This document shows, piece after piece, positions 1-55,636 of a stretch of 64,000 bases of DNA. The stretch comes from Escherichia phage KEP1: sequence record PP047755; one strand, given 5' to 3'. The notes under the pieces were generated by a model. The model saw nothing but the letters and a program-made list of their open reading frames with translations. It did not search any database and had not been told where the DNA came from. The stretch's first letter is position 1, and every line of letters begins with the position of its first letter. The position numbers and the translations under genes were made by a program.

Positions 1-397
1 TCATCGGTACACGCATAGGGACAACTGTACCTTCTTCTACAGCGTAGACTTCGACTGGTAGATAACCTAAGTCGTGGAGTGCTTCCCAATGTTCTCGACC
101 AATAGCATCTTTACCCAGAACACCGTTCATGACTTCTAAGATTTCGTCAATTGCTTCTTTTTTGTCACGTTCGAAGAATGTGGCGTTCCAGTGGTCTATC
201 AGGTAATCTTTAACAAAACGTTGAATACCAAAAGCGACTACACCATCAATTGCTAAGGGGCTGTTAAACCACTTATCACTACGTGGTGTCAGATTGAACA
301 TCAAGTATTCTGTTGCACTAGGGTACTGGTAAATGTGACCAGATTTGTAAGCATCTGCGTTTAAACCTGCTGGTACTGCATAAAGTGATTTAGTCAT
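1..397 (-). CDS. Nicotinamide phosphoribosyltransferase-like protein (Nampt/NadV- or Namat-like), N-terminal part; gene runs off the window start
   Basis: Manual minus-strand translation from ATG (CAT at about 395-397): MTKSLYAVPAGLNADAYKSGHIYQYPSATEY...; DAYK-x2-H-x3-QYP resembles the Nampt-family N-terminus; absent from ORF track because no stop lies inside the window. Confidence 0.6.
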   Translation of the reverse strand, partial: MTKSLYAVPAGLNADAYKSGHIYQYPSATEYLMFNLTPRSDKWFNSPLAIDGVVAFGIQRFVKDYLIDHWNATFFERDKKEAIDEILEVMNGVLGKDAIGREHWEALHDLGYLPVEVYAVEEGTVVPMRVPM

Positions 398-442
398 CTT
401 TTAATCTCTCTCAAAATGGGGCTTTGAAGCCCCTATAAACTT

Positions 443-1324
443 TCAATCAAGGTTTGCTACAGTAACTTGACTGTAATGTGTTAAGCCACGGTCTTTAGCT
501 TCGCCTAAAGAGTTTGTAGTGTAAATATGGTCGATACCATTGTCAAGAAGGTTTTCAACATCTTTAGAGAAGATACCATGTGTTACATAAAGTTCCACAC
601 GTTTTGCACCTGCTTCACGAAGATGTTTCGCTGCTTCTATGAAGGTTCGACCACCATCACAGATATCATCCAGAATCATAACGGTTTTATCTGTCAAATC
701 AACATCATCAAGGATTCGCATACCAGTAATTTCACCAGTCTTAAGGTTACGCACTTTAGACATTGTGATGTATGGTTTATCCACCTCTTTAGCAGTCTCT
801 GCAACCTTCTTAGCAGCACCTGCATCTGGGGCTACTAAGTAATCAACCAGTGGGTCATTTGCATAGTGGACTGCAATTTCCTTTTGAGGAATACTCTGGA
901 AGCAGTTAAACAGGTTATCTGGTACATAGCTGTGAGGGTCAACTGCACAGACTGCACCAAATCCCATTGCATTTACCTGTTTAGCAAAAACCTTTAAAGC
1001 TGCTGCGTCGCCTTTAAACATGTGACGGTCATATCGTGCATTTGGTAAGTAGTAAAAGATGACAGTCTTTAAAGCATAATCATGAGGAATTAAATCATCA
1101 ATTGCTTCTTTAGCAAGTGCCACAGCAAACAATGTGTCTTTATCATAACCTTTTACAATCATAATCACATTGTTAATGGATGATGCTGCATAAGCAGTAA
1201 AATCAACAAACTCTGGCGAAAAGTGTCCACCAATCTCACCAGAAGGGAATTGGATGATGTTAAACTCTTCTTCATGAGTTCCTTTAGTTGGTGAATGAAC
1301 TGTAACACGGATAGATGTTTTCAT
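443..1324 (-). CDS. Ribose-phosphate pyrophosphokinase-like protein (PRPP synthetase family; could be an ADP-ribose pyrophosphokinase)
   Basis: 293 aa; PRTase-type PRPP-binding loop VMILDDICDGGRTF; Prs-like length; directly upstream of the Nampt-like gene on the same strand. Confidence 0.75.
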   Translation of the reverse strand: MKTSIRVTVHSPTKGTHEEEFNIIQFPSGEIGGHFSPEFVDFTAYAASSINNVIMIVKGYDKDTLFAVALAKEAIDDLIPHDYALKTVIFYYLPNARYDRHMFKGDAAALKVFAKQVNAMGFGAVCAVDPHSYVPDNLFNCFQSIPQKEIAVHYANDPLVDYLVAPDAGAAKKVAETAKEVDKPYITMSKVRNLKTGEITGMRILDDVDLTDKTVMILDDICDGGRTFIEAAKHLREAGAKRVELYVTHGIFSKDVENLLDNGIDHIYTTNSLGEAKDRGLTHYSQVTVANLD

Positions 1325-1336
1325 AGTTTTTCTCTC

Positions 1337-1615
1337 TCAATCAAAAGTTACGTTTGTTACTGCCATTGCAGATTTGCATTTTGCAGGGTCTACAACGTGA
1401 TAAAGTACACTACAGTTACCTGTGCTGTCTGGTACAGGTTTAACCCATTGTTGCTTGACAGTTGGTTCGCCTAAGTCTTTGTAAGAACCATCTGTAAAAT
1501 TATTTATCATCTCAAGTGCAATTGGTTCTGGAATATGACCTCGTATCATGTACATCTCACAACCATTACCACCTTCACTAACTAATGGTAAAATCTCCCA
1601 CTTTTCTTTAGCCAT
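1337..1615 (-). CDS. hypothetical protein
   Basis: 92-aa ORF co-oriented and tightly packed in the minus-strand block. Confidence 0.45.
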   Translation of the reverse strand: MAKEKWEILPLVSEGGNGCEMYMIRGHIPEPIALEMINNFTDGSYKDLGEPTVKQQWVKPVPDSTGNCSVLYHVVDPAKCKSAMAVTNVTFD

Positions 1616-2123
1616 TGTAAGTTGCCCTATAAACTGTCTCGAACTTCAACAGGAGAGATATTGCCAAATCTGTATAGTTGTTGTCAAGCACATCTGGCAT
1701 ATTATTTTTGATATACCTCTCTTGCTCTTCATAGGTCATCTTAGGGATACTCAGGAGGCTATCTCCTTGCTTCTGGTTATCAGCTTTAGTTTGGATAAAC
1801 CAGTTCGCACAGTGATGTTCGCCACCTTTTGTAACAGGTTTGTGGTGGCCTAGTGTAAATGTTTGCTTACCCGTATACCTGCAAAGATTGTTCAGTGTTG
1901 CAATGGTGTTCTTCACAACACACCATTCATACAGGTTATCTATTGTGTAGTGTGGGTAATAACGAACAAGTGCTCTTTCACGGAAGTTATCACGATTCCA
2001 AAGAACCATGTGATTAGAATTTGAAGGGTCATATTTGTGGGAGTCTATAAATTCTTGACGCTCATCAAAGCTGAGTCTTAGAACTGACATTGCAACCGAA
2101 CGTTTCAAGTTTGACAGATACAT
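1608..2123 (-). CDS. hypothetical protein
   Basis: 171-aa ORF, co-oriented, abuts neighbours. Confidence 0.5.
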   Translation of the reverse strand: MYLSNLKRSVAMSVLRLSFDERQEFIDSHKYDPSNSNHMVLWNRDNFRERALVRYYPHYTIDNLYEWCVVKNTIATLNNLCRYTGKQTFTLGHHKPVTKGGEHHCANWFIQTKADNQKQGDSLLSIPKMTYEEQERYIKNNMPDVLDNNYTDLAISLLLKFETVYRATYNG

Positions 2124-2174
2124 TTTACCTCCAAAATAAAAAGGGAACCTTTACAGTTCCCCTATAGTATCTGT

Positions 2175-2495
2175 TTACTGAGCTACTTTCAAGAGGCTTG
2201 TGAATGAAATCTCACTCTCATCCATAAGCTCTTTTGCTTTTCCAGTAACTTTTACAAAGTTATCTAGGCAGATAATCTTCTTATCTTTCTTGCTGTAGGT
2301 CAGTTTCACCTTTTCAATATCTTTCTTATAGCTTTCCTCTTCATTAAAGAGCTTCACAGCTTCTTTGAATGGGAGGTATGAGCCATCATCATCACTAATA
2401 AAACCTGTACCACAATAGTAGAAGTTGTATTCTTTAGCCATAAACTGGCACAGTACGAAAATCTGTAATTTGCGAGTGTTATAAACTTTGCTCAT
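2175..2495 (-). CDS. hypothetical protein
   Basis: 106-aa ORF, co-oriented. Confidence 0.5.
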   Translation of the reverse strand: MSKVYNTRKLQIFVLCQFMAKEYNFYYCGTGFISDDDGSYLPFKEAVKLFNEEESYKKDIEKVKLTYSKKDKKIICLDNFVKVTGKAKELMDESEISFTSLLKVAQ

Positions 2496-2497
2496 GA

Positions 2498-2755
2498 TTA
2501 TTTAGCCTTCTTATTACGTTTACGGTTACGAGCTTTCTTAGCTGCTCGTTTAATAGCTGCTGCACCAGACGGGCGATGGGCTTGTTTCTTACCACCTTTG
2601 CCACGGCCTACATAGATACTTTCCATAATCTCATTAGCCAGCCGCTCATCCATCTTAAAGTTCTGCATAAGATGAGTTACATCAACCCCAGTGAGCATAC
2701 CTAATGAAGCTAGTGCTGCTTTTACTTTTGATTTAAAGCTATTCCAGATTCCCAT
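2498..2755 (-). CDS. hypothetical small basic protein
   Basis: 85 aa with Lys/Arg-rich C-terminus (KKARNRKRNKKAK). Confidence 0.45.
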   Translation of the reverse strand: MGIWNSFKSKVKAALASLGMLTGVDVTHLMQNFKMDERLANEIMESIYVGRGKGGKKQAHRPSGAAAIKRAAKKARNRKRNKKAK

Positions 2756-2878
2756 TTCGTGTCTCTCTCAGTCTTTTCAAAAATGTTTTAAGTTCTTCTT
2801 CAGTGACACCAACGGTTAAGTTTGTTCTGTAGAACATTGTAAAGTGGCCTTTACCGATAACCTACTTTACGACGAGAC

Positions 2879-3364
2879 TTACTCGGCTCTCCACTGACAA
2901 TCGCCTTGCCACCCATACTCTTTTCTCCAGAGGTTTTGGTTATCAGAACCACGATATGGTTTAACTGTTGGTTTAGATGAATCATACTTACCATCAATCA
3001 CCACGTCAACATATTTCATCACATCTAAGTGAATTTTTTCGTGTAACTGAAAACCTGTCCAGAGCCAGATAGATTTTTCTGGGTAAACAGTTTTAATACG
3101 TTTACAAATGTTGGTGACCTCTTGAATATTTCTATCATCCAGAGGCTCTCCACCGAGTATTGACAACCCACTGATGGCCTCATCATCCATTAACTTAATG
3201 ATGCCGTAGAGGTTTGCATAAGTAAACACTTTACCAGCATTAAACTTCCAAGACTCCCTATTAAAGCAGCCTTCACAGTGATGTTTACAGCCAGCTACGA
3301 ATAGGCTTACACGAACCCCTTCACCATTAGCTGTGTCAAATGGTCTAATCTCCATGTAATTCAT
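2879..3364 (-). CDS. nrdG: Anaerobic ribonucleotide reductase activating protein (radical SAM)
   Basis: 161 aa; Cys cluster CKHHCEGC near N-terminus; size and position next to nrdD. Confidence 0.8.
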   Translation of the reverse strand: MNYMEIRPFDTANGEGVRVSLFVAGCKHHCEGCFNRESWKFNAGKVFTYANLYGIIKLMDDEAISGLSILGGEPLDDRNIQEVTNICKRIKTVYPEKSIWLWTGFQLHEKIHLDVMKYVDVVIDGKYDSSKPTVKPYRGSDNQNLWRKEYGWQGDCQWRAE

Positions 3365-3399
3365 CTAGTTACCTCACCAATATTATTTAATTGTTTTAC

Positions 3400-3795
3400 T
3401 CATTCAAACACCGCCTGACAAGGAACCTGTTTAGTAATAAACTCTTCACAGTGTTCTTTAATGAAGTTTTGTAATGGCACACAGTCTTGTGCACAAGTCA
3501 TTAACATAATGTACTCTGGATTCATAATGTTTTCAAGACTGTAGAAGACAACATCGTTAGATAATTCATGACCGTCTTCTTCAGACCAAGTTCCAGTGAC
3601 TACAGCTAATTTGTCAAGCAATTCATTAGGTAATGCTACATCATCTTCTACGGAGTCACTTAGAACGTTGTCGCTGATGTACAATGTGAATACCGTGTGG
3701 AATGTTGAGTATCTTACATGATTCTTTTCGCAAGAGCCACACTCTGAGGCATAATCTTTAATCCACTCTAACTGTTTTTGGTTCAACTTAATCAT
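3400..3795 (-). CDS. hypothetical protein
   Basis: 131-aa ORF between nrdG and nrdD region. Confidence 0.5.
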   Translation of the reverse strand: MIKLNQKQLEWIKDYASECGSCEKNHVRYSTFHTVFTLYISDNVLSDSVEDDVALPNELLDKLAVVTGTWSEEDGHELSNDVVFYSLENIMNPEYIMLMTCAQDCVPLQNFIKEHCEEFITKQVPCQAVFE

Positions 3796-3992
3796 AATTT
3801 CACCTTAGTTGGTAATGTACTGAATGCTATGGCTAACCCTAAAAATGGTTTGAAGCATGACCATAAATCCATCTGACCATGATATGAGAAACTCCATTGT
3901 GGGTCTGAAAAGCCCCATACCATAACGCTAACCCCAAAGAAGAAGATTAGAATGTGGAGTATGTATATCATCGCTTTTGATATTTTAAACAT
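3792..3992 (-). CDS. hypothetical small membrane protein
   Basis: 66 aa, hydrophobic stretches. Confidence 0.4.
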   Translation of the reverse strand: MFKISKAMIYILHILIFFFGVSVMVWGFSDPQWSFSYHGQMDLWSCFKPFLGLAIAFSTLPTKVKL

Positions 3993-4146
3993 TTTAACTT
4001 ACCTCTCAACTCACAATAAGAGAGTCCTAAAAAGAACCCTAGTAAGACAGAACCTATGAACAACCCAATAATACTCTCTGCCATATCTAACATCCAATAA
4101 AAAAGGTGATGTAAGCCTATCAAGACCCACATCACCTTGTCAAGTT

Positions 4147-6291
4147 TTACATAGAGACTCTATCACGAATCTCAGCGATTTTTGCATCGTTCATTCGGGA
4201 TTCGCCTTTAATCTTAGTCCACCCAAGATACCCACACACCCTGTTAATCACAGAGATATCATGTGAATGGCAAATCTCACATTCTTCGACATCAGCCTTT
4301 GGTCTGTTACCACAATGCTCACAGATTGCTAAGTCAAAGTTAAGTCCCTGATAAAAACCTTTCAACATGCCTCTTGTAATACAGCTTTTAAGTGCTGTTA
4401 AGTTTTCTGGGTTAGCTACTCTGACATACTGGATTCTACCACCTCTACAGATATGGAAGAATGGCTCTTCTAAGTCCTGCTTCTCAAATGGTGAGATGTC
4501 TGCTGCAACATTCATATGGAAACTGTTTGTAAAGTATTCCTTGTCAGAAACACCTTTGATAACACCAAACATTTCTCTGAACTGTTTTAGCTGAGTTCCA
4601 CAAAGTGATTCTGCTGGAGTACCATAGACAGCATATAAGAAGCCATCTTCATTTTTAAACTCTTCAGTTTTCATGTTGATGTATGCCAGAACATCGTATG
4701 CAAAACTAGAGCTTCCAACTTCATGAAGTCGTTTACCTTCAGCAAGAACAGATAACTCATCCAGTGCGGTAACCCCAAAAGAAGCTGTGAAGGACTTCAC
4801 GATATCCCAGCCAACCTTGTCAGTAGATTTCTTAGTCCCTTTGTACAGACCACCTTGTGTGAATGCAAGAGGGTTAGAACTTGCTGGCATATTAGCAATC
4901 ATTTCGTAGCGTTTCTTGTGGAAGCTACGAATCATCTCTAGGTACTTATCAAGCTCTTTCCAGAAATCTAAGTCATTCCCTTTAGAATACTGGTAAATCA
5001 TTGGCAAGTTCAAAGACACAGCACCAATGTTAGCACGACCAACGTAGAACTCTTCCCCATCATCATTAAGATATGGAGACAAGAAAGCTCTGCAACCCAT
5101 CGGTGAAATTACCTTACCAGAACGCTCAAAAGCCTCTGCTACAGCACCGTGACCAGATACACTTAAGAAATCTGGATACATTGCTTTAGAGCAACACTCG
5201 ATAGCTTTACTGTACAGGTGACCTTGACAGATATTTTCATCATGTCTCTTCTGGTCATAGATATAAACCAGTTTAGGGAATACAACAGGTTTTTTGCTCT
5301 TACCTTGTCCATTCATACGAACATCTAGGAGAGTACTTGCAATCATGTATTGTAGTCGGTTGTCTTCATTAGACATATCTGAGTCAAGTAGCCCAAATGT
5401 TAAAGTTGTGAATGCAAAATCACCACGGCTGCAAGGTACGGTATTTAGTTTCATCTCTAGTGACTGGAAGCCTTGAGTTAATTCAATCTGTAGCTGCTCC
5501 ATGACATAGTTATGGTAATGTTCTTTAGGAATACCGTAAGATGCTGCTTTCTCAGCATGATAGCGTAGAGACTTCTTAGCATACGGTACAAGCACCTTAT
5601 CAATCTCTGCTAAAGTAAAGCCACCAAATTGCTGTGCAGTTGCTGAAAGAACTACATCACCAATAACCTGTAAGGCTGACAGTACAGACTTCGGTTCACA
5701 GTATTCGATGCCAGACATTTCAAAGCCACCTTTCAGTACTTTACCAATGTCAAACAAGCAGCAGTTAATACCACCAAAAATTAAGTCTCTTAAGTCATGG
5801 ATGTAGATAAACCCTTTTTCAATGGCTTCAAGTTCCTCTGGTGTTAAATGGTATTGTTTAAAGATTTCTTTAGTCAGATAACCACGAATAATTGAACCTT
5901 TTGTAGAAATTAAACTGCTGTCAAAGTTGGCATTTTCACGGTCACCTAAGAAGAGTGTGTCTCTAGTCTTTTGGTAAAGCTCATCCCAATTTTGAGCAAC
6001 CTCTTTACGGTAATTTCTATATGTTGAGTAAGACTCGTAAATCTCGTGATTGACTTCTGCCAAAGCACCCTCAACAATACTGTGAATGTCATTTACCGAG
6101 ATGAGCAAATTATTCTGCTTAGTGGACTTCACCAGAATCCTCATAAATGCTGACTCAAGAGCTTGGGTAACATCTGGTGGGAGTTCTTTATACCCAACCC
6201 TGTTAGCTGACTTAGTTACTGCTGCTAAAACTTTTTTGATATCCGGTTCTTCAAGTGAGCCATTCTTTTTAATAATCTGTACTTTGTTCAT
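4147..6291 (-). CDS. nrdD: Anaerobic ribonucleoside-triphosphate reductase (class III)
   Basis: 714 aa; N-terminal ATP-cone-like region; C-terminal CxxC...CxxC zinc site followed by glycyl-radical-like motif (INRVCGYLG). Confidence 0.88.
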   Translation of the reverse strand: MNKVQIIKKNGSLEEPDIKKVLAAVTKSANRVGYKELPPDVTQALESAFMRILVKSTKQNNLLISVNDIHSIVEGALAEVNHEIYESYSTYRNYRKEVAQNWDELYQKTRDTLFLGDRENANFDSSLISTKGSIIRGYLTKEIFKQYHLTPEELEAIEKGFIYIHDLRDLIFGGINCCLFDIGKVLKGGFEMSGIEYCEPKSVLSALQVIGDVVLSATAQQFGGFTLAEIDKVLVPYAKKSLRYHAEKAASYGIPKEHYHNYVMEQLQIELTQGFQSLEMKLNTVPCSRGDFAFTTLTFGLLDSDMSNEDNRLQYMIASTLLDVRMNGQGKSKKPVVFPKLVYIYDQKRHDENICQGHLYSKAIECCSKAMYPDFLSVSGHGAVAEAFERSGKVISPMGCRAFLSPYLNDDGEEFYVGRANIGAVSLNLPMIYQYSKGNDLDFWKELDKYLEMIRSFHKKRYEMIANMPASSNPLAFTQGGLYKGTKKSTDKVGWDIVKSFTASFGVTALDELSVLAEGKRLHEVGSSSFAYDVLAYINMKTEEFKNEDGFLYAVYGTPAESLCGTQLKQFREMFGVIKGVSDKEYFTNSFHMNVAADISPFEKQDLEEPFFHICRGGRIQYVRVANPENLTALKSCITRGMLKGFYQGLNFDLAICEHCGNRPKADVEECEICHSHDISVINRVCGYLGWTKIKGESRMNDAKIAEIRDRVSM

Positions 6292-19713: not shown

Positions 19714-19970
19714 GTAAGCCTCTTTTAAGTAACTATTAAGTTTTAATCTTTTATCTTAACGTATTCTATACGTTATACTTTAAAGCTTTTTAAAAGCTAT
19801 TAAATAATCTTTTAAGAGTTTTAAAGTATCTGTATAGTTAAACTGTTAAGTAACCTTTTAAGTAAAAACCCACTTCGCAAAGATTAACACCTTGTCAAGT
19901 GCATTGTCAACTTGCTTTTTATAATTTTTTGCAGTAATGTATGTGGTTAATGATTTTAGAGGGAGTAAAA

Positions 19971-22113
19971 ATGGAAAACGTAGATTTTAAAAACTTACAT
20001 TTAGTTGGTGATACAGAAACTGATGGTTTACTCCTTGAGTTCACTAAAGTGCACGTAATGGCTTTCGCAGACTATAAATCTGACGATGAAGAGCCACCTG
20101 TATGGGTCTTTACAGATGAGCCTATCCTCGGTCACAAGTATACCAAGTACATTAAGGGTGGTTTGCGTGAAGGTGTTGAGTTTGCGTTAAAGGCGAAACG
20201 TCTTTGCATCCATAATGGTCTCGGTTATGACTGGTGGGTTTTCAATCACATTGCACCTGATTTATGGAACTTTGATAATCCAAAGTGTAAACCGTGGAGT
20301 AATTTCTTTCAGGATTCTCTTATCCAGTCTCGTGTTCAGTGGATGGATAGGCCAACTCCAAAGGGTTATAAAGGTGCTCATGGCTTGGCTGCATGGGGTG
20401 CTCGTGTTGGTGTTCGTAAACCAGAGATTGAGCATTGGGGTGTATGGAATGCAGAAATCTTCACTCGTGTTGTAGAAGATATTCGTATTAACGCCAAAAC
20501 TAAACGGGCACTTGATAATGAGTATCTCAAGCTTAAGAAGTGTGGCATAGACACTTATGAAACCTATATGCGAGCTAAAGAAACATCTTTCTGGATGAGT
20601 CAACAAGCTATCAATGGTTGGAAAGCTGATAAAGAGCTTATGGAGTTTCATGTAAAGGAGCTTGACAAGTTGACTAATGAGCTTGCTTCAGAGGTTGAAC
20701 CACATCTACCTCCAACTATTAAGACCAAAGGTAAAGTCACTGGAGAAGAATTTGCAAAAGCTTGGAATGAGTATGTTGAAACATTTGGTCATGCAGATGG
20801 ACTGAAAAGAATTACCAAGTATCCTAAGACAAAGTATCGTCAACAGGTGCGTAACGGTGAGATGCAGACATACGAAATCAAGCCATTTGGTAAGCCAACT
20901 ACAAAGATTTTTAACATTGAAAAGAGAAATTGCTATACACCAACCAACTCTGTAACTGGTGAAGAGTACAAGGAAGGTTTTGTAGCAATGAAGGATGCTC
21001 GTGCAATTTGCAATGAGTTGAATGCAAAGATTGGTAAGAAGTGCAAAGACTGGAAGCCAGTAAAAACAGTTAAAACTGTGAAGTACTATAACAGCCATGT
21101 CGTTAACCACTTTGAGCTTGAGTCAAGTCGCTACACAGGTTTGATTGATGCACCATATACACCAATTGAGTTCGAAGTTTCTCGTATGACTCAGGTAGCA
21201 GTTGTTAAAGACTACTTGAAATCAGTTGGTTGGATTCCAGATGACTGGAACTATAAGAAAGACTCAGATGGCCGTCCTGTTAAGGTTTGTCGTTTCAAAG
21301 ACAACAAAAAGAGGATTACTAAGCACCCTAAATGGGATGAGATGGTTGAACGGTGTGGTTTGAGTTATGTTGAACATGAAGGTGTACAGTACATAGAGCA
21401 TAACTGGTCTGTTAAGAAATACACAGATTTGCTTGAACCTTGCTTAATCCGTACTTCACCAAAACTTACTGAATCATCTTATGATACGATTGAAGGTGAG
21501 CTTGGACAGAAGATTGCTAAGTACTATACTTTGATGCACAGACGTAGAACTATTGAGAACTCAAAGGATGATGAAAAAGGTTGGTTGAACCAGATTCGTC
21601 CTGATGGTCGCCTTAGTGCTGGCGCAATGGTGTTTGGTACTTCAACTGGACGTATGACACAATATGGTATTGTAAACGTACCGTCTGGTGCTGCTGTCTA
21701 TGGAGCACCTATGAGGGAGGTGTGGATTTGCGAGGAGGGGACTAATATCGTTTCAGTTGACCAGAACTCTGCACAGCTAGTTCTTCTTTGTAACTTTATG
21801 GGTGACAAAGACTTCACTAAAGCGGTAACTGAGGGTAAAGAGTCAGTAGAGTTCACTAAGCAAGATGACGGTAGATACTATTGCAAGCATCTCGATAAGT
21901 ATCTTAATCCAGAAACTGACAAGTATCTTCGTTATGATGCTGAGAACGACCTCTACGAAGTCTACACAGGGACTGATGCGCATACACTGAACAGTATTTA
22001 CTTTGGTCTGAACAAGGAAGAAGACATTGTTCGTTGTAGGGAGACACAGGATGAGGAACTTCTCCACGAGATTACAAAAGGTCGTAAGAAAGCCAAAAAT
22101 GGCATTTATGCGT
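19971..22113 (+). CDS. DNA polymerase (family A, T7 gp5-like), exon 1 (ORF-track frame 19941-22154 reads through into the intervening sequence)
   Basis: Start at MENVDF after GGGAG RBS; T7 gp5-like motifs HNGLGYDWW, AHGLAAWGARVG, motif A-like VSVDQNSAQL; coding sense ends in motif B at KAKNGIYA. Confidence 0.75.
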
Positions 22114-22381
22114 CAGTGGCGCATGTAAAACGTTGTGAATTGCTGGAAGCCTAAGTCTGTAAAGATATGGTAATCAGCAGCGAAGCCTCTTAAGAGGAAC
22201 GTTCAGAGACTATCGAAAAGCATACTTAACGTATGAACTGAGTAGAGTAGGGTGGTAAGCTAATGACCATTCCCAAGTGCAACGGTAGTATTACTACTAC
22301 GTGATATAGTCCGACACTCCGTAGAAATGCGGAGAAGTTCATAAGAGAACTGGTACACCTTGCGAGTGTATTGACCAGATG
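22114..22381 (+). other. Intervening sequence splitting the DNA polymerase gene; probable self-splicing (group-I-like) intron, boundaries approximate
   Basis: Exon 1 stops inside motif B; exon 2 resumes with LFGAGDEK in another frame; about 270 nt between, with stops in the exon frames; proposed junction follows a T (22113) and the intron ends on a G (22381), giving IYALLFGAGDEK. Confidence 0.5.
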
Positions 22382-22938
22382 TATTGTTCGGTGCAGGTGA
22401 TGAGAAGTTTGCAAAAACTATCAAGGCATCATCTACGGAAGAAGGTGCATTGACTAAACAAACTTACTATATGCGTCTGCCAAAGATTAAGAAGTTACTT
22501 GATAGCTTAGAAGCCGATTTTAAGGCGTCTAAAAAGGCTCTGGAAGAGGTTTTTGGGAAGAATTCTTCAATTGCTAAAGGTGGTTATATCAGGGTCGCTG
22601 GAGCATGGATATGGTGCAAATCTCCACATAAACTACTGAACTACCTCCTGATGAGTTCGGAAGCACAGATTCAGAATGAGGCCATCAACCTAGCAGCAAG
22701 AAAAGCCTGTGAAGATGGCCTGACAAAACTGAATGCTCGAAAACCAGCTATCGGAGCAAGGTTACTTCTGGCATATCACGATGAAAATAGTTGGGAATGT
22801 CCAGAGGGTATGACACATGATATGAAAGCAATTGCTGACTGGATGTATGGACAAGCTTCAAAAAACTTAGGTTTGAGGAAAGAAACACTTGTAACTGGTA
22901 CAGCAAAGGTTGGTAAGAGCTGGTATGAGGTACATTGA
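22382..22938 (+). CDS. DNA polymerase (family A), exon 2 / C-terminal part (motif B remainder and motif C)
   Basis: ORF track 22384-22938 starts at a TTG; LFGAGDEKFAKTI continues motif B; LLAYHDENSWECPEG matches the Pol A motif C HDE. Confidence 0.7.
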
Positions 22939-22941
22939 TTA

Positions 22942-23475
22942 ATGGATTTAATTTTACAAAAACGTTTAAAGGAGCTGCTGCACTATGACCCCGAAACAGG
23001 GGTCTTTACTTGGCTTCGTAGAGAAGGTAAATCAAGAGCTGTTAGTGTTTTTAACAGTAATTATGCAGGAAAGGTGGCAGGTAATATCCAGACTGATTCA
23101 AGTGGTCATAAACAGATTAGTATCTATTTTGACAAGAAAGCACATAAAGCACACAGACTCGCATGGCTTTACGTGTATGGCAAGATGCCAAAAGGTATCA
23201 TTGACCATATCAACGGAGACTCACTTGACAACAGGATTGTAAACTTAAGGGAAGCAGATGACTTTCAAAGTGCTTGGAATAAAGGTAAGCTAGTCACCAA
23301 TAAATCTGGGTACAAGGGTGTAAGTCTTAAGAAGAAGTCTGGTAAGTGGGTCGCACAGATAAGTTATAGAGGTAAGAAGATGTTTTTAGGTTATCATGAC
23401 ACACCTGAAGAAGCCCATAAAGCTTACTGTAAAGCTGCTGTGAAACTCCACGGAGAGTTTGCAAAACTAAGTTGA
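22942..23475 (+). CDS. HNH-type homing endonuclease with AP2-like domain (free-standing, immediately downstream of the DNA polymerase)
   Basis: 177 aa; paralogue of 12578-13102; His/Asn pattern DHINGDSLDNRIVNLRE. Confidence 0.75.
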   Translation: MDLILQKRLKELLHYDPETGVFTWLRREGKSRAVSVFNSNYAGKVAGNIQTDSSGHKQISIYFDKKAHKAHRLAWLYVYGKMPKGIIDHINGDSLDNRIVNLREADDFQSAWNKGKLVTNKSGYKGVSLKKKSGKWVAQISYRGKKMFLGYHDTPEEAHKAYCKAAVKLHGEFAKLS

Positions 23476-23526: not shown

Positions 23527-23736
23527 ATGAGCCACCGTGGAAGAACCCATGCAGCAATGATGAAAGGTGCTTCAAAGGAAACTATCAAGAATCGTAAGCA
23601 GAAGTTGTTTGAGAGAATAAACAGGTTGATTGACAATTCATCTCTTTCAGGTTCTGAGAAGGTTTTCTTGAAAGGTAATCTGAAAAGCATTGCACAAGAA
23701 CTTGTAGATATTGAATATTGGAGACATCAAAAATGA
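23527..23736 (+). CDS. hypothetical protein
   Basis: 69-aa ORF. Confidence 0.45.
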   Translation: MSHRGRTHAAMMKGASKETIKNRKQKLFERINRLIDNSSLSGSEKVFLKGNLKSIAQELVDIEYWRHQK

Positions 23737-23951
23737 CACTTGCAGACGTTATTCAGCAACTTCATGATAACTGCTACACTCCAGAGTTAATTCAGGAGAT
23801 GTCCATTGTAGTCATGCCTAGCAAGTTCGTAAAAACCTTTAACAACGACGCTTTAAGGTCTACACACATCCTTATCGTTGACGGTAAGATTGCAAAAGAC
23901 CGTACTGGAGTACTTAAAGGTGAACGTATTGATATTCTGGAGTTGCTATGA
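23718..23951 (+). CDS. hypothetical protein (start more likely at about 23733)
   Basis: 77-aa ORF; internal Met preceded by GGAGA. Confidence 0.45.
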   Translation: METSKMTLADVIQQLHDNCYTPELIQEMSIVVMPSKFVKTFNNDALRSTHILIVDGKIAKDRTGVLKGERIDILELL

Positions 23952-24083
23952 AGAAAATGTACAGTCTCTGGGGAAGGGTTGGTAAAGGTTTTGACTGGAC
24001 ACTTCTTCGTTCAAACGTTAAACGTAGTGAATTACCAGAACTCATTACTCACTATTTAAAAACATACAGAGAGGTAGACTATC

Positions 24084-24341
24084 GTGAACAATAAGGTTAA
24101 GAGTTGTGTGAAAGCAATGGTTGCACTTGGAGTAATTTTTCTATCTGGCTGCAACCCCTCTTACGAGGACAAAAACGCTTCTTATAGCCTCCCACCAGAG
24201 ATGCAAGACTGCAAAGTCTATAAGTTACATGGTGATGCCATAAGCAGAGATATTGTTGTTGTCAGATGTCCAAACTCTCAAACAACAACATCTTATAGTT
24301 ATGGGAAAAATGGTCAATCACACACTACGGTTATTGAGTGA
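24084..24341 (+). CDS. Small lipoprotein (signal peptide plus lipobox)
   Basis: 85 aa; MVALGVIFLSGC contains lipobox LSGC; short mature domain. Confidence 0.6.
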   Translation: MNNKVKSCVKAMVALGVIFLSGCNPSYEDKNASYSLPPEMQDCKVYKLHGDAISRDIVVVRCPNSQTTTSYSYGKNGQSHTTVIE

Positions 24342-24351
24342 GGTTTTCACG

Positions 24352-24558
24352 ATGGAAGTCCTAGTAAACTATATCTATTGTTATGATGTTGTTCACTCCA
24401 CTACAACCGTAGCTCAACGTAACCCAATCGTCCCACGAGAAGGTGAGTTGGTTCGCATCGAGGGTTGGACTTACACTGTGGAAAGCATCATCCATAAGTT
24501 TGATGTTGCTGGTGATGTTCAAGTTATCGACGTAGAGATTGGTGGTAAGAGAAAATGA
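24352..24558 (+). CDS. hypothetical protein (ORF-track frame 24253-24558, start trimmed to internal Met)
   Basis: MEVLVNYIY preceded by GAGG; the longer ORF overlaps the lipoprotein gene. Confidence 0.4.
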   Translation: MEVLVNYIYCYDVVHSTTTVAQRNPIVPREGELVRIEGWTYTVESIIHKFDVAGDVQVIDVEIGGKRK

Positions 24559-24714
24559 AACCTAAGCAAACAATGACAGATGCAACCTTCACAGTGCGCA
24601 GTTTCGAAAGGTTGCACATCAAAGATGCAAAAAATACACCAAAATGCGTTGTGCATTTCATTAAAAGGCGTAGTAACATGTCATATATGAAATCTGACAA
24701 AGGCAAGAGATAAA

Positions 24715-24906
24715 ATGAACAAAGAAGATAAGCATAAAAATGCTGTACGAACTCCTGATGGAAAGGTTCAATCCTTCATCCTTACAGTTGATGGAAAGCC
24801 ATTTCGTTGCCACTGCGGAGCAAACTGTTTTCATAAACCAGATAAAAATGACTTAGAGCTTTACGCATGTAATGCTTGCAATACTTGGTATCACTCAGAG
24901 GAATAA
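24715..24906 (+). CDS. hypothetical zinc-ribbon protein
   Basis: 63 aa; CHCG...CNACN cysteine pairs. Confidence 0.45.
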   Translation: MNKEDKHKNAVRTPDGKVQSFILTVDGKPFRCHCGANCFHKPDKNDLELYACNACNTWYHSEE

Positions 24907-24907
24907 A

Positions 24908-26011
24908 ATGACAACTCTATACAAACAAAATAAAGATGGCTCTTTTAACGTCTGGTCATGTGTCGCTGTAGGTGACAAAGTTATTACAACCTACGGTAAA
25001 GAAAATGGCAAGATGATGTTTGAAGAGTATACAGCAGAACCTAAAAACATCGGTAAAAAGAACGAGCGTAACGCTGAACAGCAAGCTCTCTTTGAAGTTG
25101 CTGCTAAGTATAAAAAACAAGTTGACCGCAAAGGTTATGCTTACACAAAAGAGTCTGCACAGAATACTGAGAAGGTAGGTGTACAGCTTGCTCATGATGC
25201 TGCAAAGGTTAGTCATGCAAAGTATCTGAAGTTCCCTGCTGATGCTCAACCGAAACTTGATGGTGTCCGTTGTAGGATTTCAAGGCACTTAAGTATTGGC
25301 AGTGTATTCACAGCATATTCTCGTGAAAATACTGTTTACAAAATCCCTACTGAACTAATACCTGACATTATGGCAATGTTAAGGCTCCACAAAGATGTTG
25401 ATGAATTTGATGGAGAGATTTATGCTCATGGGTGGGACTTAGAAGATATCGTCTCTATGATTAAAAATGAAGACAATCCTGACAGACACCTGCTCAAGTT
25501 TTACTGGTATGATATTTGTGACAGCACTAAGACGTGGCCTGAGCGTAGAGATATTATTGAGACTTCACCATTGAATGACTTTAGAGACGGCTGTAGAGTT
25601 GTCCCTGTTAAGTCTCGTCGTGTAAATTCTTGGGAAGAGTTTGATGAAGCTCATGATAAGTGGGTTGAAGCTAAGTTTGAAGGTGCAATGTACCGTTCAA
25701 TCTCTGAAGACTCCTTCTATGAGTGTTGTCACCGTTCATACTTCTTGATTAAGCACAAGAAGATGCACACTGAAGAGTTTAAAGTGACTGGTGTAAAGAC
25801 TGATAAGCGTGGTCATGGCAAGTTCGTTGTAGAGACTCTTCCTAACGTCTTTGTAGATGTCTCATGGAAGACTACTCATGAGAAGAAACAGTATCTTGCT
25901 GAGCATCCTGAAGAGTTTATCGGGAAGCCTCTAACGGTTCAGTTCCAGAAGATGACTCGTAAGGGTTCTTTACAGTTCCCTGTCGGGCTAGTTATTAGGG
26001 ATTATGAATAA
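24908..26011 (+). CDS. ATP-dependent DNA ligase
   Basis: Start trimmed to MTTLYK after GAGGAA RBS; adenylation motif I PKLDGVRC (KxDG); T7/T4 ligase-like length. Confidence 0.8.
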   Translation: MTTLYKQNKDGSFNVWSCVAVGDKVITTYGKENGKMMFEEYTAEPKNIGKKNERNAEQQALFEVAAKYKKQVDRKGYAYTKESAQNTEKVGVQLAHDAAKVSHAKYLKFPADAQPKLDGVRCRISRHLSIGSVFTAYSRENTVYKIPTELIPDIMAMLRLHKDVDEFDGEIYAHGWDLEDIVSMIKNEDNPDRHLLKFYWYDICDSTKTWPERRDIIETSPLNDFRDGCRVVPVKSRRVNSWEEFDEAHDKWVEAKFEGAMYRSISEDSFYECCHRSYFLIKHKKMHTEEFKVTGVKTDKRGHGKFVVETLPNVFVDVSWKTTHEKKQYLAEHPEEFIGKPLTVQFQKMTRKGSLQFPVGLVIRDYE

Positions 26012-54273: not shown

Positions 54274-54350
54274 TGGAGAATCCGAAGGGACTCGAACCCT
54301 TATAAACCTGTTTTGCAGACAGGCACATAGCCATTTCTGTCACGGATTCA
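54274..54350 (-). tRNA. tRNA-Cys (anticodon GCA), boundaries +/-3 nt
   Basis: Cloverleaf by eye: T-arm rc AAGGG-ACTCGAA-CCCTT, anticodon stem CCTGT/ACAGG, loop CUGCAAA, 7-bp acceptor, CCA encoded. Confidence 0.65.
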
Positions 54351-54353
54351 AAT

Positions 54354-54443
54354 TGGAGGAAGATACCAGACTTGAACTGGTACACCGATTTCTCAGCTAC
54401 TGGCAGTTTAGCAAACTGCTCCCTTACCTTTTAGGGTTAATCT
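54354..54443 (-). tRNA. tRNA-Ser (anticodon GCU), type II, about 90 nt
   Basis: Acceptor GGAAGAT/ATCTTCC, anticodon stem GCAGT/ACTGC, loop UUGCUAA, long variable arm, CCA encoded. Confidence 0.65.
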
Positions 54444-54448
54444 TCCAT

Positions 54449-55246
54449 TTATTTCTGTAATGCGTTCTTCATTTCTGGTGTTGCAATAGTGTCAATTACA
54501 CCAGTTTTACAAGCATCATCAAACCAGTCTGGTAAGATACCTGCTAAGAACCCATTGATATTCGTTTTAAGGTACTCTGCAATAAGGGCAGCTTCTTCTT
54601 CAATCATCTGCACAACTTCATCTGCATAAGCTGTAATCTTTGAGATACCTTCATTAATCTTACTAACAGCTTGGTTAGCTAAATCAGAAATAGTATCAAG
54701 ACCTTTATCAATAGCATCCTGTAAGTCACTTAATACATCATTAACACCGTCTAGTGCACTGTTAATCGTATCAATAGCTTTTTGACCATACTCTGTAGCA
54801 ACACCCATAATACCACTAAATGGTGTACAACCGACTTGCTCTCCTGCTGCACCCATAACATTGGAATATCCTTTTGCTACCTGCATACGTGATGAAAACT
54901 CATCAATGGACTTTTGACCGTAATCTGTCAGTGTCTTAGTAGTTGATGTAGTGCTTGTCAGACTCGTTGTAAAGCTGTTAAGCAGAACTGTTGTAAGTCC
55001 AGCAGCAATAAGCTTATCCTTTATTGTAGGGTCTGTTACAGAGCTAATAGAGCTTACAAGTGATGTAGAGGCAGCTACGGTTCCACCGAGAACTGCTGCA
55101 CCAGTAATAAGGGGATTAGAAAACCCTCTACCGGTTTTTAAGAGATTAAAAATCTCCTTACCTTGTTCTGTCATCTCTTTCATTAAGCACCTTTGAAATT
55201 GGTAGTCCAGTGGGATTTGAACCCTCTTCTCATGTTTTTCAGACAC
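54449..55246 (-). CDS. hypothetical protein inside tRNA cluster (Thr/Ser-rich, hydrophobic segment)
   Basis: 265-aa ORF between tRNA genes, co-oriented; ORF-track start may overlap the tRNA-Phe 3' end. Confidence 0.5.
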   Translation of the reverse strand: MSEKHEKRVQIPLDYQFQRCLMKEMTEQGKEIFNLLKTGRGFSNPLITGAAVLGGTVAASTSLVSSISSVTDPTIKDKLIAAGLTTVLLNSFTTSLTSTTSTTKTLTDYGQKSIDEFSSRMQVAKGYSNVMGAAGEQVGCTPFSGIMGVATEYGQKAIDTINSALDGVNDVLSDLQDAIDKGLDTISDLANQAVSKINEGISKITAYADEVVQMIEEEAALIAEYLKTNINGFLAGILPDWFDDACKTGVIDTIATPEMKNALQK

Positions 55247-55276
55247 GCGCTTTAACCATATAAGCTACTTGGACTA
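55200..55276 (-). tRNA. tRNA-Phe (anticodon GAA)
   Basis: Acceptor TAGTCCA/TGGACTA, anticodon stem CGTGT/ACATG, loop CUGAAAA. Confidence 0.6.
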
Positions 55277-55281
55277 TAAAT

Positions 55282-55357
55282 TGGGGTGACCTACGGGATT
55301 TGAACCCGTATAGACCATGTTCACAGCATGGGTCATTACCATTTATGATAAGGCCAC
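55282..55357 (-). tRNA. tRNA-His (anticodon GUG)
   Basis: T-arm ACGGG-ATTTGAA-CCCGT (rc), anticodon stem CCATG/CATGG, loop CUGUGAA. Confidence 0.6.
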
Positions 55358-55388
55358 ATTTAAGGACTCTCGTAAGAACCCTTAGAAG

Positions 55389-55464
55389 TGGCAGCGGCAT
55401 AAGGATTTGAACCTTAATAAGACAGCTTCAGAGACTGCTGCATTGCCAGTTATGCTATACCGCT
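55389..55464 (-). tRNA. tRNA-Gln (anticodon CUG), tentative
   Basis: Acceptor and T-arm clear; anticodon loop CUCUGAA with G-U containing stem. Confidence 0.45.
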
Positions 55465-55469
55465 AAATT

Positions 55470-55558
55470 TGGTACTCCATATCGGATTCGAACCGATACA
55501 TAACACAGATTTTAAGTCTGGCCTCTCTGCCAATTGGAGTAATGGAGCATTGGCGGGG
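55470..55558 (-). tRNA. tRNA-Leu (anticodon UAA), type II, about 86 nt
   Basis: T-arm ATCGG-ATTCGAA-CCGAT (rc), anticodon loop CUUAAAA, long variable arm. Confidence 0.55.
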
Positions 55559-55560
55559 GA

Positions 55561-55636
55561 TGTTGGAATTGAACCAACTTCTTCGATTTCAAAGACCGAG
55601 GTTTTAACCTTGTAAACTAATCCCCTTTAAATCTTT
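55561..55636 (-). tRNA. tRNA-Gln (anticodon UUG)
   Basis: T-arm GTTGG-AATTGAA-CCAAC (rc), anticodon stem TCGGT/ATCGA, loop CUUUGAA. Confidence 0.55.

Follow-up and report, generated by a model that had tools for sequence, protein, structure and literature searches.

A probable NARP1 operon (adps and namat) in the FelixO1-like coliphage KEP1

The adps and namat genes

One end of a 64,000-nt stretch of the genome of Escherichia phage KEP1 (sequence record PP047755; the whole stretch is called the window below) carries, on the minus strand, a gene of the phosphoribosyl pyrophosphate (PRPP) synthetase (Prs) family followed by the first part of a gene of the nicotinamide phosphoribosyltransferase (Nampt) family. 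This pair is read here as the two-gene NAD+ reconstitution pathway 1 (NARP1) operon of FelixO1-like phages, with a probability of roughly 0.93 on the comparisons given below, and the genes are accordingly called adps, for ADP-ribose pyrophosphate synthetase, and namat, for nicotinamide ADP-ribose transferase. A first-pass annotation, made from the DNA letters and their open reading frames (ORFs), had already proposed a Prs-like gene directly upstream of a co-oriented Nampt-like gene as a candidate NAD+ reconstitution module against host defence, and the genes, their order and their orientation are all borne out.

The first gene of the pair, adps, occupies 443-1324 on the minus strand, exactly as delimited in that annotation, starts with ATG and encodes a protein of 293 amino acids, which matches the Pfam families Pribosyltran (7.9e-12) and Pribosyl_synth (4.2e-10) as well as PHROG 619 'ribose-phosphate pyrophosphokinase' (8.4e-97). 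It aligns gaplessly over its full length with gp79 of phage Bas63 (229 of 293 residues identical, 78%) and shares 291 of the 293 residues with Adps of phage vB_EcoM_DE17 (DE17). Lys190 of the KEP1 protein aligns with Lys194 of E. coli Prs and with the catalytic Lys162 of Adps from SPbetaL1, a Bacillus phage, whose K162A mutant is inactive (10.1101/2024.02.11.579819), and the residues of the ATP site and the PRPP motif are invariant across SPbetaL1 Adps, E. coli Prs and both adps alleles described below. In BLASTP the KEP1 protein scores 100 bits against SPbetaL1 Adps versus 62 bits against E. coli Prs (b1207), to which it is 25-29% identical. Among NCBIfam models, which match only as generic Prs and nicotinate phosphoribosyltransferase models and include none specific for Adps or Namat, the only one that the protein passes is TIGR01251, a broad subfamily model (124.5 bits, cut-off 113); it stays below the cut-offs of all Prs equivalog models (296-536 bits), the best score being 104.8 against a cut-off of 296. 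A search of the PDB found no solved Adps structure, the best matches being cellular Prs. On this evidence the KEP1 protein is assigned to the phage Adps clade and not to cellular Prs. Near-identical Adps proteins of phages wV8 and XTG1, which like the KEP1 protein start with MKTSIRVTVHSPTKGTHEEEF, are listed as Namat-associated in the tables of the paper that described NARP1, and the Namat proteins of the same two phages as 'Adps-associated'.

The second gene, namat, starts with ATG at 397 on the minus strand and is open for 132 codons down to position 2, where it is cut by the window edge before any stop codon (1-397); its counterparts in relatives have 593 codons. The remaining ~461 codons were found nowhere else in the window by tblastn, which was run as a check for a circularly permuted assembly. 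The fragment matches Pfam NAMPT_N (1.9e-06) and two PHROGs for 'nicotinamide phosphoribosyl transferase', 16547 (9.5e-62) and 448 (3.2e-45); like the matches of adps, these lie well outside what chance would give. It is identical to Bas63 gp80 at 131 of 132 residues and to the DE17 protein at all 132. Its best PDB match is SPbetaL1 Namat (3e-28), for which the crystal structures 9W5X and 9W5W are available (PMC12774641), as against 2e-4 for mammalian Nampt; likewise, full-length Bas63 Namat matches SPbetaL1 Namat at 1e-127, the Nampt of Xanthomonas at 2e-51 and that of humans at about 1e-41. The second-best Namat-like structure in the PDB is 9KE8, on which a literature search found nothing.

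Namat has been reported to recognize ADP-ribose pyrophosphate (ADPR-PP) by a two-part adenine 'selectivity clamp' made up of a variable beta1-beta2 loop and a helix of the form GS-X-Phi-X-Phi-X-Phi-TRD (PMC12774641). The clamp loop of the KEP1 protein, TPRSDKWFNSPLAID, with Lys42-Trp43, is identical to that of Bas63, in which the residue after the lysine stacks on the adenine in an AlphaFold3 model (PMC12774641); it is four residues longer than the loop of SPbetaL1, with Lys-Trp in place of Arg40. The N-terminal nicotinamide-site residues Asp15 and Tyr17 match Asp13 and Tyr15 of SPbetaL1 Namat, whose TPR motif is also conserved. The helix is encoded to the left of window position 1, as are the counterparts of the SPbetaL1 catalytic-core residues F189, R192, D215, R306 and the catalytic histidine; the signature of the helix is GSYTYQYMTRD in DE17 and Bas63, and the motif GS(F/Y)TYQY(N/M)TRD is common to SPbetaL1 and the close relatives of KEP1. 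The Felixounavirus Namat (DE17, Bas63) has 593 residues versus 491 in SPbetaL1, with two insertions, one of roughly 15 residues at about 258-275 and one of roughly 80 at about 340-427, the larger of which splits the Pfam NAPRTase match; the genes compared lie at 2616-4397 of the DE17 stretch (L007) and 23674-25455 of the Bas63 stretch (L006).

Along the direction of transcription adps lies 5' of namat on the same strand, and the two are separated by a 45-nt spacer (398-442, minus strand) that contains a hairpin and, before the namat ATG, the ribosome-binding stretch GAGAGAG. Adjacency and co-orientation, by which NARP1 is recognized, are both found here; among genes of the Adps clade, 97% have a Namat gene within 10 genes. 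The hairpin (418-433, minus strand) has a 6-bp G+C stem, GGGGCU-UCAA-AGCCCC, followed by AUUUUG, and folds at -12.8 kcal/mol (z = -2.35). The spacer of Bas63 is of equal length, and its hairpin has an identical stem and a single change in the loop. A role as a full terminator was considered and rejected, since only four U residues follow the stem and the terminator scan did not report it; the hairpin may rather stabilise the RNA or act as an attenuator or partial terminator.

Assignment to NARP1

Bas63 (JohannRWettstein) is the phage in which NARP1 was defined, and its two genes, bas63_0079 (882 nt) and bas63_0080 (1782 nt), lie 45 nt apart in MZ501086, with 0078, 0077, 0076, nrdG and nrdD before them and rIIA after them, an arrangement that is the same in the window. 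The two loci agree in genus, genomic position, gene order, length of adps and the 45-nt spacer with its hairpin, and Adps is 95% identical over its C-terminal 115 residues. They differ in the first ~178 codons of adps, which belong to another allele, and in nrdD, which is interrupted by an intron with a homing endonuclease in Bas63 and continuous in the window. The first-pass annotation had left the choice between NARP1 and a NadV-type salvage pathway as in Vibrio phage KVP40; NARP1 is favoured because of this orthology and synteny with bas63_0079/0080, and the KVP40-type part of the proposal is not supported, the Namat fragment being closer to that of SPbetaL1 than to true Nampt and no Nmnat having been detected in the ORFs scanned.

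The function of NARP1 has been established by deletion of genes 79-80 of Bas63, which makes the phage sensitive to SIR2-HerA (10.1101/2024.02.11.579819, Osterman et al.). Wild-type Bas63, but not the deletion phage, restores NAD+, the protection is independent of host pncC and nadR, and ADPR-PP accumulates only in the presence of both Bas63 genes and the defence system (10.1101/2024.02.11.579819). In an independent study, plating on Sir2-HerA cells fell by 1e4-1e6 on deletion of either gene of the pair, the effects on retron Ec86 and hhe being weaker (10.1101/2024.10.10.617714). SPbetaL1 Adps is active on ADP-ribose and gives no product in a Prs assay, and SPbetaL1 Namat prefers ADPR-PP (10.1101/2024.02.11.579819). 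Collectively, the phenotype and the chemistry have been demonstrated in Bas63 (genetics and metabolomics), SPbetaL1 (enzymology) and FADO, and the NAD+-splitting systems overcome by NARP1 include type I Thoeris, DSR1, DSR2, SIR2-HerA and SEFIR, to which Kongming is added in the NAR study (PMC12774641).

By analogy with these orthologues and homologues, from which both the chemistry and the anti-defence phenotype of the KEP1 pair are carried over, SIR2-, TIR- or SEFIR-type effectors of the host would split NAD+ into ADP-ribose and nicotinamide. Adps would then pyrophosphorylate the terminal ribose of ADP-ribose at the expense of ATP to give ADPR-PP, and Namat would replace the pyrophosphate with nicotinamide to yield NAD+ directly, so that phage replication could continue. 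What the KEP1 sequence itself supports is the identity of the genes, their orthology and synteny, the catalytic lysine of Adps, and the N-terminal catalytic and adenine-clamp residues of Namat.

Three points weigh against this assignment. Bas63 Adps could not be purified, and the enzymology comes from SPbetaL1 proteins, the Adps of which is only 32-36% identical to that of KEP1 (48% for the N-terminal part of Namat). Over its first ~178 residues KEP1 Adps is of another allele class than Bas63 Adps, with 67% amino acid identity. The window lacks about 78% of namat, including the codons for the catalytic arginine, the catalytic histidine and the GSxxxxxxTRD helix motif. We infer by analogy that the KEP1 allele of Adps would behave like those examined in the literature, and that namat is presumably intact beyond the window edge and the pair active.

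The alternative that survives best is a classical salvage pair, in which Prs would supply PRPP, Nampt (NadV) would convert it to nicotinamide mononucleotide (NMN) and host NadR/PncC would complete NAD+ as a general metabolic boost. Most GenBank records annotate the pair in this way, and the two proteins are members of the Prs and Nampt superfamilies, whose cellular representatives (E. coli Prs b1207; human and Xanthomonas Nampt) have in common with the KEP1 pair the fold families and the residues that catalyse phosphoribosyl chemistry; moreover, full-length Bas63 Namat exceeds the cut-off of NCBIfam NF006629, and SPbetaL1 Namat makes NMN from PRPP in vitro when no ADPR-PP is supplied. However, Bas63 overcame SIR2-HerA in a host without pncC and nadR, ADPR-PP was seen in vivo, SPbetaL1 Adps formed no product in the Prs assay, KEP1 Adps reaches at most 105 bits where the Prs equivalog models demand 296-536, and the clamp loop of its Namat matches that of Bas63. 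Both proteins are nearer to SPbetaL1 Adps and Namat than to Prs and Nampt, a comparison that the first-pass annotation had proposed in the form of profile searches. A salvage pair is very improbable.

Even less to be expected is a NARP1 module that is defective in KEP1 through truncation or disruption of namat beyond the window edge. Only 132 of about 593 namat codons are visible, and homing endonucleases and introns that interrupt genes are numerous in Felixounaviruses. On the other hand, the visible part has no stop and agrees fully (100% identity) with DE17, in which namat is intact (593 codons), the gene has 1782 nt in all relatives inspected, and adps is under purifying selection (ratio of nonsynonymous to synonymous divergence, dN/dS, about 0.1).

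NARP2 of KVP40, which combines the Nampt NadV with the Nmnat NatV, likewise uses a Nampt-superfamily enzyme to restore NAD+ against a depletion defence; it differs in taking PRPP as the donor, in following the NMN route, for which Nmnat is needed, and in having no Prs-like partner. Such a pathway, with a PRPP-preferring Nampt and a phage Nmnat encoded elsewhere, is hardly credible in KEP1. In its favour, KEP1 is a large lytic phage that has, besides many genes of nucleotide metabolism, one of the Nampt family, and ~23 kb of uninspected genome lie beyond the window. Against it, NARP2 Nampts are linked to Nmnat and not to a Prs-like gene such as the one adjacent here, the neighbouring ORFs and 27 non-structural ORFs of 120 amino acids or more showed neither CTP_transf_like (Nmnat) nor NUDIX domains, the tree of the discovery paper labels Felixounavirus proteins Adps-associated, and the Namat fragment resembles the SPbetaL1 Namat of known structure much more than it does a true Nampt.

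Within NARP1, elaborated loci are known: NARP1-AP of Vibrio phage Gary consists of Adps, the Macro-domain phosphatase Adpp and Namat, and the locus of DyoEdafos contains RyDEP, a glycosidase with a RyR domain. Both share the Adps and Namat core with KEP1 and differ from it by an extra gene inside the operon, where the window has only the 45-nt spacer. Neither a Macro nor a RyR domain was detected in six ORFs upstream of adps, three downstream of namat in DE17 and the 27 non-structural ORFs; the search for Nmnat and NUDIX covered the same set, leaving aside ORFs under 120 amino acids away from the immediate neighbourhood, the structural genes and the ~23 kb outside the window. Since none of the Macro, RyR and Nmnat domains turned up in these ORFs, the KEP1 locus is classed by its sequence as a plain two-gene NARP1, resembling the operon of SPbetaL1 in its gene order, and by the published logic of NARP1-AP the phage would be expected to remain sensitive to aRES.

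NARP1 is already known from the genus, since it was discovered in Felixounavirus and the same Adps allele is in the published catalogue, and the KEP1 locus adds no new biology beyond pointing to an allelic dimorphism of adps. Its value lies in correct annotation as Adps and Namat, most relatives in GenBank still being labelled Prs and NadV/Nampt. Since NARP1 undoes the NAD+ depletion caused by Thoeris, DSR1/2, SIR2-HerA, SEFIR and systems like them, its presence helps to predict host range and is relevant to the choice of therapeutic phages.

Allelic forms of adps

The two halves of adps have different histories. Over codons 1-178 (790-1324 of the window; 22747-23280 of the Bas63 stretch L006) the KEP1 gene is 70% identical in nucleotides and 67% in amino acids to those of Bas63, Tribble and UAB_Phi87, whereas codons 179-293 show 91-93% nucleotide identity between the groups and both flanking genes 94%. 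KEP1, wV8, XTG1 and DE17 carry one type of the N-terminal part and Bas63, UAB_Phi87 and Tribble the other, and this part is 96-98% identical within each group; adps of Felix O1 appears to be a hybrid. A tblastn survey is bimodal, with 154 records at or above 90% identity, 91 at 60-80% and only 7 at 80-90%.

Diversifying (positive) selection on the N-terminal half of Adps was considered and rejected: between the groups synonymous divergence (dS) is saturated at about 1.5 and dN/dS is about 0.15. For this reason the two forms are best read as ancient alleles that have been shuffled by recombination under purifying selection. The allele knocked out experimentally is the Bas63 type, and the window carries the other. 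A functional difference between the alleles, for example in substrate range (such as tolerance of modified ADP-ribose), in regulation or in evasion of a host factor directed against Adps, is conceivable and unlikely.

Neighbouring genes and genomic setting

Upstream of adps, an ORF of 92 amino acids (1337-1615, minus strand) ends 12 nt before adps and is probably co-transcribed with it. Its product is identical to that of bas63_0078 at 89 of 92 residues and matches PHROG 4726 (unknown function), with no match in Pfam. It is preceded, with an overlap of 8 nt, by an ORF of 171 amino acids (1608-2123, minus strand) whose product is identical to that of bas63_0077 at 151 of 171 residues (88%). Bas63 gp77 has been reported to counter retron Ec67 and was described as a GIY-YIG protein in the PhageMaP preprint (10.1101/2024.10.10.617714). 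The KEP1 protein has no Pfam match and a weak HNH-like PHROG match (2.7e-06), and its HHK...GGEHH...NW motif is read as HNH-like from the sequence. In relatives, rIIA and rIIB, which are reported counters of QatABCD, lie just beyond namat, and the region containing the gp77 orthologue, NARP1 and rIIA/rIIB looks like an anti-defence cluster. A terminator-like hairpin with a T-run at 2141-2163 (minus strand), found by the terminator scan, corresponds to a place at which a terminator is annotated in phage Tribble, and probably closes the preceding transcription unit. The four tightly spaced minus-strand ORFs (1608-2123, 1337-1615, adps and namat) are probably transcribed as one unit from 2123 down to position 1.

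In megablast, positions 1-3400 match 255 phage records, nearly all of them FelixO1-like myoviruses (Felixounavirus, Ounavirinae) of Escherichia, Salmonella and Shigella, and more than 200 Felixounavirus records match at 93-96% identity. The closest record for 1-1324 is DE17 (97.9% nucleotide identity), and the first 25 kb of the window match the best records at about 94% identity. These matches place the window in a Felixounavirus genome, that is, a FelixO1-like coliphage. The surroundings are typical of the genus, with nrdG, nrdD, nrdB, nrdA, thymidylate synthase, DHFR, a primase-helicase, DNA polymerase, homing endonucleases and a tRNA cluster.

The tRNA cluster (54274-59864, minus strand), typical of FelixO1-like phages, contains 25 genes according to ARAGORN and 24 Rfam tRNA matches, and adjoins an ORF of 471 amino acids (60030-61445, minus strand) with DUF2828 and DUF7788. 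Gene interruptions vary among these phages. In the window nrdD (4147-6291, minus strand) is a continuous ORF of 714 codons; in Bas63 its annotation joins two pieces separated by a homing-endonuclease gene, so that the presence of the intron differs between phages. Conversely, the gene for a family A DNA polymerase, which is uninterrupted in Bas63 (909 amino acids), is split in the window (19941-22112 and 22381-22935) by a group I intron of ~270 nt without an ORF, matched at 22051-22334 (plus strand) by Rfam RF00028 (64.2 bits, E = 5.5e-14). Compared with Bas63, the upstream exon of this gene is 96% identical and the downstream exon 78%.

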